NCBI GenBank assembly: GCA_014905635.1
Contig: CM026547.1
Coordinates: forward strand, 4,588,001-4,652,000
DNA: 64,000 bases
Direction of reading: 5' to 3'
From: Scenedesmus sp. PABB004
Taxonomy: Eukaryota
Made by a program: the position numbers and the translations under genes
Part shown: positions 4,893-63,764 of the stretch, piece by piece
How the letters are laid out: each line of letters opens with the position of its first letter
Position numbering within the stretch: the first letter of the stretch is position 1
Notes under the pieces: model-generated
Told to the model about the DNA's origin: nothing
Databases searched by the model: none
The model's input: the letters and a program-made list of their open reading frames with translations, nothing else

Positions 4893-7608
4893 ATGCTGCT
4901 CTTCGCGGGCCGAGGCCTCGCCCCCGGCGCGCTGGCGCCAGGGTGCGTGGCGGCCCTGCGCCACCTGGCCCGGGCGGCCATCCACGGCGCCGCGGCGCCG
5001 CTGCCCGGCGCGCCGGCGGCGCCCGGGCCGGCCGGCCCCCTCGGCGCGCCCAAGGGCGCCGCGGCCCAGCCGGGCCGTGCCGGGGCCTCGCCGGCGGCGG
5101 AGCCGATTGCCGAAAGCAGCCGCACCATCAAGGGCCTGCTGGACGGCCTGCTCCAGCAGCAGGAGGGCCGCCCCGGGCCCATGCCAACCGCGCAGGTGCG
5201 CCCGGCTCGCCAGGGGCCCGCCGCGGCGCCGCGCCCCCTCCCCCCGCCTCGGCGCCTCACCGCCGCGCCGTCGACACAGGGCGTTGACCGGCCGGCGGCC
5301 GGCGGCGGCCAACAACACCTCGACGCCGCCGCCGCGCCGGGCGCGGCCGACGCGGGCTGCCAGCCGTACGGCGCGCGGGCCAGCGGCGCCCAGGTGCGGA
5401 TGGACAGCCAGCTCATCTTTGACTCCTGCTGGCGGCGCTTCCGCGACAAGCACGGCATGGTGCGCAGCAGCGCGCTGCGCGTGCGGCGCCGCGCCGCCGC
5501 GCCCCCCTTTCTCTGGCGCGCGCGCTCACCGCGGCCGCGCCTCCGCCGCAGAACTTCTCGGCGCCGCGCGAGGTCATCTGGCTCAACGGCGCGCCCGGCT
5601 CGGGCAAGGTGTGTGCGCGCGCGCGCCCGGCGCCGGCAGCAGCAGCCCTCCCCGCTACCGCGCGCGGCCGCCCGCCCCTGCCGCCGCCGCCGCTTCACCC
5701 CTGCCGCCGCCGCCCGGGGCGCAGGGCGTGTCGACGCCGCACATCATGAAGGCGCGCGGCATGGCGCGCTCGGTGTGCGTGTCGTCGCTGCTGTCGGGCG
5801 CGCCCGAGGCGCGCGGGTTCATCGAGGCGGGCGAGATGATCGGCGACCACGTCGTCGGCGACCTGCTGCTTGAGGCGCTGCTCCTCCCCGCGTCGGCGGG
5901 GCTCACCACGGCGGAGCTGAACGTCGTCATCGACGGCTTCCCGCGCACCGCGGTGCAGGTGCGCCCCGCAGCAGCGGCGCGGCGCTGCGGCGGCGGCGCG
6001 CGCCCCGCAGCGGCGGGCGCAGCCCCGTCCGCGTGCAGCAGCAGGCGCGGCGGCCGGTCGGGGCGCCGCCCGAGCGCGCCGCGCCGCGCCGCGCCGGGCG
6101 GCAGGTCGACTTTGTGAAGCTGCTGGAGGACAAGCTGCGCTACCTGCACACCAAGTTCATGGACACGCCGCTCGGGCCGCGCTTCCCGCGGCCGGCGTTC
6201 AAGGTGGTCATGCTGTACGTCGACGAGGCCACCTCCATCGGCCGCCAGCTCGCGCGCGCAGCCGCGGCGCAGGCGCACAACGCGCGCGCCAAGGACGCCG
6301 GCGGGCGGGAGGCGGGACTGCGCCTCGCCGAGGAGCGGGTGACGGACGCGCTGCCGGATCGAGCTCACAAGCGGTATTCCATTTTCCGACAGCACTACCC
6401 GGCCATCCTGCGCCTCAAGCAGGCACGCGGCCGCCGGGAGGCAGCGCGCGGCGCGCCGCAGCGTCCCGCGGCGCCCGGCGGCGGCGGCGGCGTGCGCCAG
6501 GCGGCGCGCGCTCACCCGCGCGCCCGCCCCCATGCCCCGCGCCCGCCGCCTGCGCCCGCGCAGTTCTTTGCGTTCCACCTCATCGACGCGTGCGGCAGCC
6601 CCAGCGACACGCAGGAGCAGATCCTGCAGGAGCTGCGCTACCAGTCGAGCCTGGACCTCAGCGAGGAGGCGTACGCGGCCATCAGGTGCGCATGCGTGCG
6701 CACGCGCGCACGTGGCAGGGACGGGAGGGGGGGGGGGGCACCGCGGGCGGCGGCGGACGGCGCACGCGGGGCGGCGGCGCCCGACGCGGCCCGCACACGC
6801 CGCGCCGCGCAGGCACCTGCCGCTCGCCAAGGACCTGCAGCACACCGCGCGGCAGCAGCTGGTCAGCCGGCTGGAGGCCTACGCGCGGCAGCAGCGCCCG
6901 CTCTTTGCGCGCGTGCTCGCGCTGCTGCAGGGTGAGGTGCTGCCGCTGCTGGAGCAGGGCGCGCTGTGCGGCGCGGCCGAGTGGGTCACGCAGGAGGAGC
7001 TCTTTGCCGCGCACCCCGCGGCGATCGGGATGCTGCTCGACGTCGTGACCGACCGCGGCTTCTCGGCGCACTACGTGCGCGAGGCGCTGCCGGTGCCGTT
7101 CCGCTTTGACGCGGCGAGCGGCGCGATCGAGACGCGCGTGTCGCCGCTGCACCGCTTCCGCTTCGCCTTTGCCGCGCCCGGCCTGCGCGACGGCGGCGCG
7201 CTCAAGGCGCTCGAGATCGCGGCGCGCATCACCGAGGCGAGCCGCGGCGGCGCCGGCGGCGCGGGCGGCGCCGACGCGGGCGCGCCCGGCGCCGCCGCCG
7301 GCGGCGGCGCGTCGCCGATCACCGAGTCGTTCATCCCGGCGCACCTCGACGTGGAGGCGCGCATGCGCGCGCAGGAGGCGGCGCGCGGCCGCGCGCGCGT
7401 CGCGCTCGCGGGCGCCGGCGGCGGCGCCGCCGCGGCGACGGCGGCGCGCGCGCCGTGCGGCGGCGACGCGTCGGCGTGCGGCGGCGGCGCCGCCACGGGC
7501 GCCGTGGCCGAGGGCGAGGGCGACGTGCTGGTCATCCACCGCTGCACGCGGCCCGACATCGGCTGCGGCCACGCGCACGAGCTGGAGGTCGTGTCGGCCA
7601 GCGGCTGA
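4893..7608 (+). CDS. Adenylate/nucleoside-monophosphate kinase family protein with N-terminal targeting peptide and long C-terminal extension
   Basis: Spliced product contains the P-loop VIWLNGAPGSGKG, VVIDGFPRTAVQV and FHLIDACGS...ELRYQSSLDL; about 5 introns, one with a GC donor at 6423. Confidence 0.85.
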
Positions 7609-61036: not shown

Positions 61037-63764
61037 TCACGCGACCACGCCGGCCTTCTTGTCGGCGGTGGCCATGTGGGAGATGAGGTCGACCACGCGC
61101 GTGGAGTAGCCGAGCTCGTTGTCGTACCTGAACGCAGCGCGCCGCGGGCGCAGGCGGCAGCGGCGGGCGGGGTGAGGCTCGGGGGCCGCGGCACGGGGCA
61201 CAAGGCGCACGCTGCAGCCGGGCGGCGCAGCGCGGGCGCGGCGCGGGCGGCGCGCGGGGCGCACCAGGAGACGAGCTTGACAAAGGTCGGCGAGAGCATG
61301 ATGCCCGCCTTGGCGTCGACGGTGGAGGAGGCGGGGTCGCTGATGAAGTCGCTCGACACCACGTCGTCCTCCGTGTACCTGCGCGCGCGCAAGGACCGGC
61401 CAGCGGGACAGGGCGGCGGGCGTGACGCACGGGCGCGGCGGCGGCAGGGACCGTGCGGGCCATGTGTGCGCGCGCGCGCGCGCCTCCCGCCCGCGCCCTC
61501 GCCCCCGCGCGCCGCCGGGCCGCTCACGCGAGCACGCCCTTCATGTAGGTCTCGCTCGCCTCCTTGAGCGCGGCCATGATCTCCTCGTACTTGGCCGGGC
61601 GCTCGAGCACGCAGGTCAGGTCGACCACGCTCACGTCCTGCAAGCGCGCGCGACGCGGGCGCGGTGTCGGCGCGTGCCCGGCGGCGCGCGCGTACCGCCT
61701 GCCGCGGCGCCAGGCGCCCGGGGCGCCGCCCGCGCGCGGTGCCGCGCCGCCGCACCTGGGTGGGCACGCGGAAGGCCATGCCGGTGAGCTTGCCGTTGAG
61801 CTCGGGGATGACCTGCGGTGAGTCCGGGGGGCGACGCAGCGCGCGCGGGTGAGCCACGCGCGCACGGGAAAGAGAGAGGGAGAGGGGAGCGCAGGAGGCG
61901 TGCATGCGGGCGGCGGCGGCGGCGCGCGGGGCGGGCAGCGGCGGCGCGCCTTGCCGACAGCCTTGGCCGCGCCGGTGGAGGAGGGGATGATGTTGCCGCT
62001 CGCGCCGCGCCCGCCGCGCCAGTCCTTCTTGGAGGGGCCGTCGACCGTCTTCTGCGTCGCCGTCGTCGCGTGCACCGTGGTCATGAGGCCCTCCTTGATG
62101 CCAAACTTGTCGTTCACGACCTGCGTGTGCGTGTGCGTGGGTGCGTGTGTGTGAGTGTGTGTGTGAAGAGGCGCAGGCGCAGGCGGCGGCGGCAGCGCGG
62201 GCCGGGCGCGCGCGCCGGCGCAGCACAACAGGGCGTGGCCGAGTGCGCTGCGTGTGCGCGCGCGCGCTTGGGCGCGCCTTGGCGAGCGGGGCGAGGCAGT
62301 TGGTGGTGCAGGAGGCGTTGGAGACGACGGTGTGTGCCTTGGGGTCGTAGCCGTCGGCGTTGACGCCCATCACAAACATGGGCGCGTCGGCGGAGGGCGC
62401 AGAGATGACGACCTTCTTGGCGCCGCCCTTGATGTGCGCCTGGCACTGCGCGGCGCACGCAGCGGGCGCGGGCGGGGCGCGGGCGCGGCGTCGTCGGCGG
62501 CCGGAGGCGGGGCGGGCAGGGCGGGGGGCGCGCGGGCGCGCCGGCACGCGGGCGGGGCGCGCCCCGCGGCGCGCGGCGCTGCGCGGACCTTGTCGACGGT
62601 CGTGAAGACGCCGGTCGACTCGACCACGTAGTCGGCGCCGACCTGGCCCCACGGGATCTGGCTCGGGTCCCTGCGGCGGGGGCGCACGAGAGCGCAGCGC
62701 GCACGGGCGCGCGCGCTCGGGGCCGGCCCGCGCGCGCAGGCCGCTGCACGGCAGCCCCGCAGGCCGCCGCGCCGCGCGCGCGCGCGCGCCGCACATCATG
62801 GCGAAGGTCTTGATGCGCTTGCCGTTGATGACGAGGCCCTCGGCGTCGCCCTCGACGCTGCCCTCGTAGCGGCCGTGCACCGAGTCATACTTGAACATGT
62901 AGGCCTGGCAGGTGCAGGGTGGCGGCGGGGCGGGGTGGGCGGGGGCGGGGCGAGGGAGTGGGTTGATGATCGACAGGAGCAGCACGCGAGGCGCCGAGCG
63001 CACGCCCGCGCGGGAGAGAGTGCGCACGCAGCGCAGCGCGGCGGGGCGCGGGCGCACCATGTACTCGCCCTCGATGAACGGGTCGTTCACGGCCACGACC
63101 TGGACGTCCTTGCGGTCCAGCGTCTGGCGCAGGACGAGGCGGCCGATGCGGCCGAAGCCTGCGCGGCGCGCGCGGGCGGCCGGGGCGCGGCGCGCTCGGC
63201 GGCGGCGCGCGCATGCGAATGCGCCGCGCGCCGGCCGGCGGCCCCGGCCGATCATGCCCATCATGCACACATCGTGCCACGCGGCCCGCGCCCGCGCCGC
63301 CCCGGGGGGTTGCGCGGGCGCCGCGCGTCACGGTCGCGTCCGCGCCGGCGCCGCGGCCGCGGGCCAAGCGGGGTGCGGGGGCCGACGCCAAAATCGCATG
63401 CACGGCGTTGCGGCGGCCGCGGCGGGCGGCGCTGCGCGGGGGCGCGCAGACGAGATCGGCGCGCGACAGCTCGCGCCGCGGGAATCGCCCTGGGGGATGC
63501 CACGCCCCCAGCGCCCGCCCGCGGCCGCCCGGGAGGCTGATCTCCCCGCTGGGCCCCTCGCCGGCCGGTCAACGGCGCTGCGCCGCCCGTGGCGACGCGG
63601 CGCGGGCGGCGCATGCGCGCAGCCCCCGCGCGCGTCGGGCGGGGCTCACCGTTGATGCCGACCTTGACCGGCGCATCCGACGCGCGCACCACCACCGCGG
63701 CGCGGCGGCTCGCGCGGTGCGGCGCGCGCAGGGTTGTCGTGCCGACACGGGCGGAGAGGGCCAT
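61037..63764 (-). CDS. GAPC: Glyceraldehyde-3-phosphate dehydrogenase, GapC (NAD-type) with plastid transit peptide
   Basis: MALSARV...AVVVRAS transit peptide, [44 protein letters not shown]; 9 coding introns plus a probable 5'UTR intron. Confidence 0.97.

Follow-up and report, generated by a model that had tools for sequence, protein, structure and literature searches.

Introns that begin with GC and end with AG (GC-AG introns) made up 1.3% of 2.46 million introns in the survey of Iwata and Gotoh (2011, PMC3033335), in which their shares were 39.6% in Aureococcus anophagefferens, 22.2% in Micromonas pusilla and 7.7% in Chlorella sp. In Emiliania huxleyi, GC donors were reported at 56-65% of junctions and checked by reverse transcription polymerase chain reaction (RT-PCR), and gene models biased toward GT were wrong (Feldmesser et al. 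2014, PMC4028052). Among pelagophytes, predicted GC-AG shares are 14-17% for strains of Aureococcus and near 14% for Pelagomonas, and a lower-GC relative has 0.32% (bioRxiv 10.1101/2024.10.30.620910). The GC content of genomes correlates with that of their splice sites (Frey and Pucker, PMC7072748), and human GC 5' splice sites carry compensatory signals (PMC3167603). We report on the introns of a 64-kb window of Scenedesmus sp. PABB004 (contig CM026547.1, positions 4,588,001 to 4,652,000; "the window" is this whole stretch, and coordinates count from its first nucleotide), about a quarter of which are predicted to start with GC after an exon ending in AG.

Abundant GC-AG introns in GC-rich algae have been known since 2011, and the window is a further, more extreme green-algal case. 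The first-pass annotation of this DNA had implied a greater degree of unusualness than can be upheld, as GC-donor shares of 22-60% were already published for GC-rich algae. Like the algae of PMC3033335, two of whose three species are green algae, the window represents a high-GC nuclear genome with a GC-AG share in the tens of percent, attributed to G+C content. It differs from them in having 79% GC compared with their 64-70% and in belonging to the Sphaeropleales, its proteins being nearest to those of Scenedesmaceae. Both marks of such high-GC algae, a nuclear G+C content of at least about 64% and a GC-AG share far above 1-2%, were found here. With E. huxleyi the window shares donors changed from GT to GC while the acceptor stays AG, the attribution to high GC content and the mis-modelling of genes by standard predictors. 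In that haptophyte, however, GC donors are the majority, whereas in the window they are a minority confined to AG-ended exons. In the pelagophytes the predicted GC-AG share is likewise elevated, which its authors ascribe to genome GC (bioRxiv 10.1101/2024.10.30.620910), but they are stramenopiles with few introns per gene, unlike the approximately 5-13 introns per gene seen here. The published shares are based on expressed sequence tags and cDNA in PMC3033335 and on RT-PCR and RNA sequencing in E. huxleyi, whereas that of the window comes from the sequence of one window and homology alone. The U2-type GC-AG introns of animals and plants resemble those of the window in following the GT consensus apart from position +2 and in depending on a strong remaining consensus, but they amount to about 1%, so that the frequency in the window is approximately 25 times higher. 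An exonic AG rule such as the one found here is not reported in the consulted passages of PMC3033335. We found no GC-AG frequency for Scenedesmaceae, Selenastraceae or the order Sphaeropleales in the open-access literature, and a term search of the main text of two Sphaeropleales genome papers (PMC5966456, PMC12571836) returned no mention of splice donors.

The G+C content of the window, 79% overall, lies between 77 and 82% in each 4-kb bin. Third codon positions in exons are 96% GC; introns are 86-87% GC, with 7-8% T and about 6% A, and C/(C+T) in intron interiors is 0.867. To our knowledge, this is among the most GC-rich eukaryotic nuclear DNA. Published Sphaeropleales genomes have 51-72% GC (PMC5966456, Table 1), with Monoraphidium and one Scenedesmus strain above 70% (one of PMC5966456 and PMC12571836). 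Because long open stretches occur in every reading frame of the window, open reading frames carry no information here. A three-base periodicity of GC content outlines short exon-like blocks whose frame switches every 100-300 nucleotides (nt). Pfam matches on these blocks include RGP (reversibly glycosylated polypeptide), pheophorbide a oxygenase (PaO)/Rieske, ClpP, FtsH, GAPDH, ATP synthase delta/OSCP, SRP receptor alpha (SR-alpha), PIG-V and an ABC half-transporter, which is a green-algal set. The nearest proteins are from Tetradesmus obliquus, Scenedesmus sp., Chromochloris, Raphidocelis and Monoraphidium, all of the order Sphaeropleales; the window is nuclear DNA of a green alga.

Junctions were located with a protein-to-genome aligner written for the task, which allows introns in all three phases and was used in two modes, one charging GT and GC donors the same and one restricted to GT, and with a hidden Markov model (HMM); both are blind to exon context. 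Spliced alignment or unbroken Pfam or Protein Data Bank (PDB) numbering fixed 18 GC-AG junctions, at which frame and conserved protein are restored. Eight further AG/GC introns are predicted by the HMM. The 26 introns are listed below after the region that holds them; a slash marks the exon-intron boundary and exonic letters are in lower case.

5000..63800, unstranded: gene-dense region with approximately 100 short introns of median length about 137 nt, 74 of 102 merged introns being GT-AG.
17368..17496, plus strand: GC-AG intron, ABC half-transporter, cag/GCGCGC; spliced alignment to the proteins P0242, P0241 and P0243, with GT-only reading through as a 43-residue insert.
18021..18156, plus strand: GC-AG intron, ABC half-transporter, aag/GCGCGC; spliced alignment, the GT alternative at 18003 deleting 6 residues.
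19607..19741, plus strand: GC-AG intron, ABC half-transporter, cag/GCGCGC; spliced alignment.
23108..23307, minus strand: GC-AG intron, RGP, cag/GCGCGG; Pfam position 174 then 175, in agreement with four cDNA-like orthologues.
23506..23672, minus strand: GC-AG intron, RGP, gag/GCGCGT; Pfam numbering and orthologues, with GC also in the metagenome contig L001.
26361..26470, minus strand: GC-AG intron, ClpP, cag/GCGCGC; Pfam CLP_protease position 161 then 163, with a split codon between.
26548..26688, minus strand: GC-AG intron, ClpP, aag/GCGCGC; Pfam position 136 then 137/138.
38432..38603, plus strand: GC-AG intron, ATP synthase delta/OSCP, cag/GCGCGC; Pfam OSCP continuous if 6 unaligned exon-end residues are counted.
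41083..41215, plus strand: GC-AG intron, PIG-V mannosyltransferase, cag/GCACGG; Pfam position 300 then 301.
45920..46058, minus strand: GC-AG intron, FtsH, cag/GCGCGC; all 10 homologues favour it, and GT at 46064 would delete 2 residues.
46206..46318, minus strand: probable but ambiguous GC-AG intron, FtsH, gag/GCGCGT; favoured by 7 of 10 homologues.
47409..47514, minus strand: GC-AG intron, FtsH, cag/GCGCGG; spliced alignment.
53238..53387, plus strand: GC-AG intron, SRP receptor alpha, aag/GCGCGA; 4 of 4 homologues, GT-only giving a 50-residue insert in the GTPase domain.
56285..56456, plus strand: GC-AG intron, branched-chain aminotransferase, aag/GCGCGG, with an unusual AAG acceptor; human BCAT2 PDB chains, 76 then 78, with a split codon.
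56573..56669, plus strand: GC-AG intron, branched-chain aminotransferase, cag/GCGAGG; PDB chain 115 then 116, the match of the downstream exon being weak (E 0.47).
59093..59222, minus strand: GC-AG intron, inward-rectifier-like K+ channel, cag/GCGCGC; Pfam IRK_C 93 then 94, with weak E-values.
61813..61949, minus strand: GC-AG intron, GAPDH, aag/GCGCGC; with GT at 61958 instead, 3 conserved residues are lost.
62121..62277, minus strand: GC-AG intron, GAPDH, aag/GCGCGC; the GT alternative at 62229 inserts 16 residues.
6423..6563, plus strand: predicted GC-AG intron, cag/GCACGC; HMM coding potential alone.
25825..25964, minus strand: predicted GC-AG intron, ClpP C-terminal extension, aag/GCGCGG; HMM alone.
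34852..35000, minus strand: predicted GC-AG intron, GST-like gene, cag/GCGCGC; HMM alone.
44118..44305, plus strand: predicted GC-AG intron, PaO/Rieske oxygenase, aag/GCGCGG; HMM, Pfam numbering being discontinuous.
51957..52105, plus strand: predicted GC-AG intron, poorly conserved SR-alpha linker, aag/GCGCGG; HMM, with homologues disagreeing on the donor.
55426..55514, plus strand: predicted GC-AG intron, endonuclease/exonuclease/phosphatase-family gene, cag/GCGCGC; HMM alone.
57319..57440, plus strand: predicted GC-AG intron, branched-chain aminotransferase, cag/GCACGT; HMM, the upstream exon having no PDB match.
59774..59980, minus strand: predicted GC-AG intron, K+ channel gene, cag/GCGCGC; HMM alone.

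All ten sites put forward as examples in the first-pass annotation indeed read exonic AG followed by GC, eight of them as GCGCG, and nine are fixed by protein homology, the exception being 6423, which was placed by coding potential alone. Every junction in the aligned parts was evaluated in seven genes, and 14 of their 47 introns were GC-AG (13 if 46318 is dropped). GAPDH, aligned to Tetradesmus, Chromochloris and Scenedesmus proteins, has nine introns, seven with GT and two with GC donors (62277, 61949), and its spliced reading frame is open from ATG to TGA. FtsH has eight GT and three GC donors in 11 introns (47514, 46318, 46058, one of them ambiguous). The ABC half-transporter has three GC donors in 13 introns (17368, 18021, 19607), on which three references agree, one of them a transcriptome-derived open reading frame. 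One of the four robust SR-alpha junctions (53238) and two of the five RGP introns (23672, 23307) are GC-AG, the latter by comparison with four cDNA-like orthologues from metagenome contigs, as are two of three in ClpP and one of two in OSCP. Pfam or PDB numbering is unbroken over nine GC junctions (two each in ClpP, RGP and the aminotransferase, and one each in OSCP, PIG-V and the K+ channel). The contention that GC donors are needed to restore conserved proteins was borne out in GAPDH, ABC, SR-alpha and RGP, where GT-only alignments either inserted 16-50 amino acids or lost conserved residues. The length of 12 of the 16 homology-checked GC introns is not a multiple of three; retention would therefore shift the frame, and their removal would be needed. 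Frames in these genes are intact, codon bias is extreme and identity to relatives is 83-89%.

Several candidate junctions were not accepted as checked. The SR-alpha linker (about 51180-52125) was dropped since homologues give conflicting alignments over it and the aligner placed spurious GC introns, with random exon ends, within it, and a rubredoxin junction near 21191 was dropped for a 4-position gap in profile numbering. At 44118 (PaO) and 55426 (endonuclease/exonuclease/phosphatase family) Pfam numbering is discontinuous or absent, and these were not counted as fixed by profile. A PDB search with both exons flanking 6423 and the exon upstream of 57319 returned nothing usable. Among sequencing runs sharing words with the window there was no RNA run and one DNA run, from a freshwater metagenome, containing 6% of the words sampled. 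Over 44001-64000 this run gave contigs of 150-370 nt with 95-99% likeness at some exons, together with many GC-rich pieces of low likeness, and none of the differences listed for it falls on the +2 position of a donor. Intronless GAPDH genes of other organisms are the apparent source of loose ends at 62277 and of a joint over 61806-61949; these have the standing of protein homology, not of RNA evidence.

Because the window contains many more GC than GT dinucleotides, false GC donors are a real risk. As a control, each of eight decoy dinucleotides was offered to the aligner instead of GC in GAPDH, FtsH, ABC, SR-alpha and RGP; the same 11 introns of these five genes again had no usable GT donor. 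Summed over the genes, the alignment gain was 395 for GC compared with 275 for the best decoy, and GC gave the largest gain in every gene; AG preceded 11 of 11 GC sites and 0-1 sites for any decoy. In the homology-checked set, AG precedes the donor in 16/16 GC and 13/34 GT introns (Fisher p = 2.4e-5). This agrees with the first-pass annotation, in which GC donors always followed exonic AG and GT donors tolerated other exon ends. The gene domains contain 1311 sense-strand GCGCG pentamers, 55 of them after AG, and donors account for 22 of these 55 compared with 1 of the other 1256, a doubtful call.

Window-wide counts were obtained with the HMM, trained on the GAPDH, FtsH and ABC models, in which exons are 3-periodic and introns homogeneous second-order Markov chains, the donor is scored on intron positions +3 to +8 and the acceptor on -15 to -3. 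It was run with strand domains and a GC-donor prior of 1%, and introns whose two flanks each scored 15 or more for coding were kept. This model recovers 30 of its 33 training introns and predicts 161 introns, of which 97 are well flanked (72 GT, 25 GC); AG precedes 22/25 of these GC donors and 25/72 of the GT donors. An earlier variant without strand domains chained genes over both strands and yielded 452 introns at a GC prior of 25%; it over-called and was replaced. Merging 50 homology-checked with 52 HMM-only introns gave 102, 28 with GC donors, 25 of which follow AG; intron 56573 lies just below the HMM score cut, and its PDB support was gained outside the merged count. The three GC calls lacking AG (820, 9553, 30112) are weak and look false. 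An approximate quarter of introns with GC donors was thus obtained from the merged list, the HMM and the seven genes alike, and the 29 of about 118 introns originally counted by hand are reproduced. The description of the donors as mostly AG/GCGCGC is roughly right: 13 of 25 AG/GC donors read GCGCGC and 22 of 25 begin GCGCG.

On the intron side, GC donors essentially match the local GT consensus GTGCGC apart from +2. The 34 GT donors have G at -1 in 31, G at +3 in 32, C at +4 in 27 and A in 5, and G at +5 in all 34; the 16 GC donors (AG/GCGCG) have A at -2, G at -1, C at +4 and G at +5 in all 16 and G at +3 in 15. The remaining consensus is therefore stronger where +2 is C, with both -2A and -1G in 16/16. 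Nearly all donors of either class have -1G, and it is -2A that separates the classes (16/16 compared with 15/34). The two classes are indistinguishable in median length (GC 138 nt, GT 136.5 nt) and in GC content (86.5% and 87.9%). Across the region 5000..63800 the consensus is G/GTGCGC at the donor and CAG at the acceptor; acceptor position -3 is C in all 50 homology-checked introns, and 56285-56456, fixed via PDB numbering, is the only intron found with an AAG acceptor. Fourteen of the 16 GC introns are in phase 0, after CAG (seven), AAG (five) or GAG (two) codons. Exonic AG is thus shielded from GC pressure: it mostly closes a Gln, Lys or Glu codon before a phase-0 intron, and in that codon A is constrained by the protein and G is the third-position base favoured by the genome. 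No clear branch-site consensus was found in the last 60 nt of the 50 introns: YTNAY occurs in 8/16 GC and 6/34 GT introns, mostly as CTCAC. Intron-internal signals being so weak, most of what guides recognition probably lies in the donor, the CAG acceptor and intron length. The extended, highly conserved donor and branch-site motifs of U12-type introns were not found in these introns, whose donors read GCGCG or GCACG and which have no conserved branch motif. No GC donor resembles the U12 donor motif.

It is highly probable, judging from these patterns, that these are ordinary U2-type introns in which donor +2U has been replaced by C under GC pressure, the replacement surviving after exonic AG. 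Strong GC pressure would drive the T-to-C change at +2, and the low T content of introns (7-8%) at 86-87% GC fits such pressure. The changed donor would survive only where enough 5' splice-site signal remains, that is, where the exon ends in AG, which would pair with U1 small nuclear RNA (snRNA) beside +1G. The intron half G[U/C]GCGC would offer U1 only +1, a wobble at +3 and +5, plus +2 when it is U; without +2U, the contiguous pairs at -2, -1 and +1 may become indispensable. Compensation would lie on the exon side (-2A, -1G) because the GCGC of the intron side matches U1 poorly. At the level of sequence and homology, GC now stands at about half of the AG-ended donors and at no other donor, which amounts to about a quarter of all introns. 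In the homology-checked set, 16 of 29 AG-ended donors are GC and 0 of 21 others. We computed U1 pairing over -3 to +6 with the conserved 11-nt U1 5' end given in PMC3033335. Both donor classes retain at least four Watson-Crick pairs, and at least five pairs counting wobble; predicted duplex energies are -3.0 to -4.5 kcal/mol for GC donors and on average -5.6 kcal/mol for GT donors.

Several points weigh against this interpretation. After a T-to-C change, 12 of the 21 non-AG GT donors would keep at least four Watson-Crick pairs, yet none is GC. Pair counting thus gives the direction of the AG rule but not its strictness, for which the role of contiguity is our own suggestion; other readers of the exon end besides U1 may contribute. 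GC donors make up 48-55% of AG-ended donors (16/29 checked, 25/52 merged), significantly below the neutral expectation of 87% (binomial p = 6e-5 and 1e-10), so that either T remains preferred or the position has yet to come to equilibrium. The proposal that +2U is dispensable after AG consequently stands insofar as C is tolerated there, but not in the sense that the position is neutral. Moreover, 8 of the 26 tabulated introns are supported by the HMM alone, the homology-checked donor 46318 has a workable GT alternative, and all shares come from one 64-kb window. Junctions were deduced from homology, profile numbering or coding potential, which makes splicing itself a deduction.

A modelling artefact, with nearby GT as the true donors and GC sites appearing through the roughly fourfold excess of GC over GT dinucleotides, would explain the spurious GC introns that the aligner chose in the SR-alpha linker, the false-looking HMM calls without AG, and the GT alternatives at 46318 and 46058, which cost only two residues. 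At 46318, that alternative (46312..46200) requires an AAG acceptor, compared with CAG in all 50 homology-checked acceptors. In conserved genes, restricting the aligner to GT comes at the cost of the inserts and conserved-residue deletions described above, GC outscores every decoy, and AG precedes all 16 checked and 22 of 25 HMM donors against a background of 55/1311, in a context that neither method uses. We consider an artefact very improbable. Sequencing is difficult at very high GC content, and the pattern could in principle be mimicked by pseudogenes whose introns have ceased to be spliced out, or by systematic T-to-C errors introduced at donors during assembly or polishing. Errors would not strike only +2 and only after exonic AG, the intact frames, codon bias and identity to relatives speak against error and non-functional copies, and the independent metagenome contig L001 has a GC donor at the same RGP position. 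The chance of such an origin appears negligible.

Adapted machinery, in which a changed U1 5' end, U6, or U1C/Luc7-type proteins would make GC donors equal to GT beyond base-pair compensation, finds some support: at +4 and +6 the consensus G[T/C]GCGC is a poor partner for the canonical U1 5' end, simple pair counting leaves the all-or-none AG rule unexplained, and base modification or U1 small nuclear ribonucleoprotein proteins have been proposed for Aureococcus and M. pusilla (PMC3033335). In the same study, the U1 5' 11-mer equals the consensus in Aureococcus and both Micromonas species, and in the window GT above the neutral expectation indicates that +2 is still read. By analogy, adapted snRNAs in this alga are unlikely, and we regard this explanation as a whole as improbable; an Rfam scan of the 64-kb window at gathering thresholds returned no match, and no snRNA, within it. 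A related idea, doubtful on present evidence, is that 5' splice-site recognition itself has shifted in this lineage, through U1 or U6 changed in sequence or by modification or through altered proteins of the U1C/Luc7 type, with exonic AG, +1G, +3G and +5G as the signal and +2 weakly read. If true, GT and GC would be near-interchangeable at AG-ended exons and would flip between relatives, as at RGP position 174.

Orthologous introns were compared for RGP. When metagenome contigs were scanned with one RGP exon, 80 loci were obtained, mostly from low-GC plants; two of the 80 are genomic algal contigs of 57-59% GC (L001 and L044).

RGP intron position 174: cag/GC in the window; cag/GT in L001 (59% GC) and L044 (57% GC); not present in land plants.
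RGP intron position 108: GC in the window and in L001; no intron in L044; not present in land plants.
RGP intron position 240: aag/GT in the window; outside the aligned part in L001; no intron in L044; GT in 8 of 9 aligned land plant loci.

Position 174 is an orthologous AG-ended donor with GT in two relatives, an instance of the GT-to-GC switch against lower-GC relatives that the first-pass annotation had suggested seeking. The GC donor of L001 at position 108 (L001:752-1021, cag/GCGCGG) belongs to a related alga of 59% GC; it therefore predates the extreme GC content of the window or arose twice.

Some further features of the window were observed. An inverted repeat of about 730 nt (1732-2460 and 3861-4592) consists of two adjoining arm pairs with 99% complementarity, its inner ends about 1.4 kb apart, and lies within a stretch nearly without coding periodicity (about 1100-5000), on which the HMM places mirror-image pseudo-introns on both strands. 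A weak Pfam match to the N-terminal domain of the PRP1 splicing factor (E = 0.0045; 30538-31491, minus strand) sits in a long exon of an otherwise unannotated gene and is too weak to interpret. The best T. obliquus matches of ABC, FtsH and GAPDH (OEZ85_009053, OEZ85_009088 and OEZ85_009102) are on one 11.08-Mb contig. The order ABC (16299-20467), FtsH (45635-49281) and GAPDH (61040-63764) is the same as in Tetradesmus, which suggests conserved synteny with T. obliquus across these genes. In the public Tetradesmus protein P0241 (1063 amino acids), whose UniRef name is 60S ribosomal protein L7a, ABC transporter domains are joined to a ribosomal L7Ae domain; this model is probably two neighbouring genes fused by annotation.

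In conclusion, the window contributes to a published phenomenon a numerical account of how GC donors depend on exonic AG, together with the protection of this AG by Lys, Gln and Glu codons. Gene predictors that allow only GT donors or penalise GC heavily would mis-model approximately one intron in four, and consequently most multi-intron genes of the organism. The window represents a natural experiment on the loss of a 5' splice-site signal and offers a handle on how the exon and intron halves of the donor may compensate for each other under extreme GC pressure.

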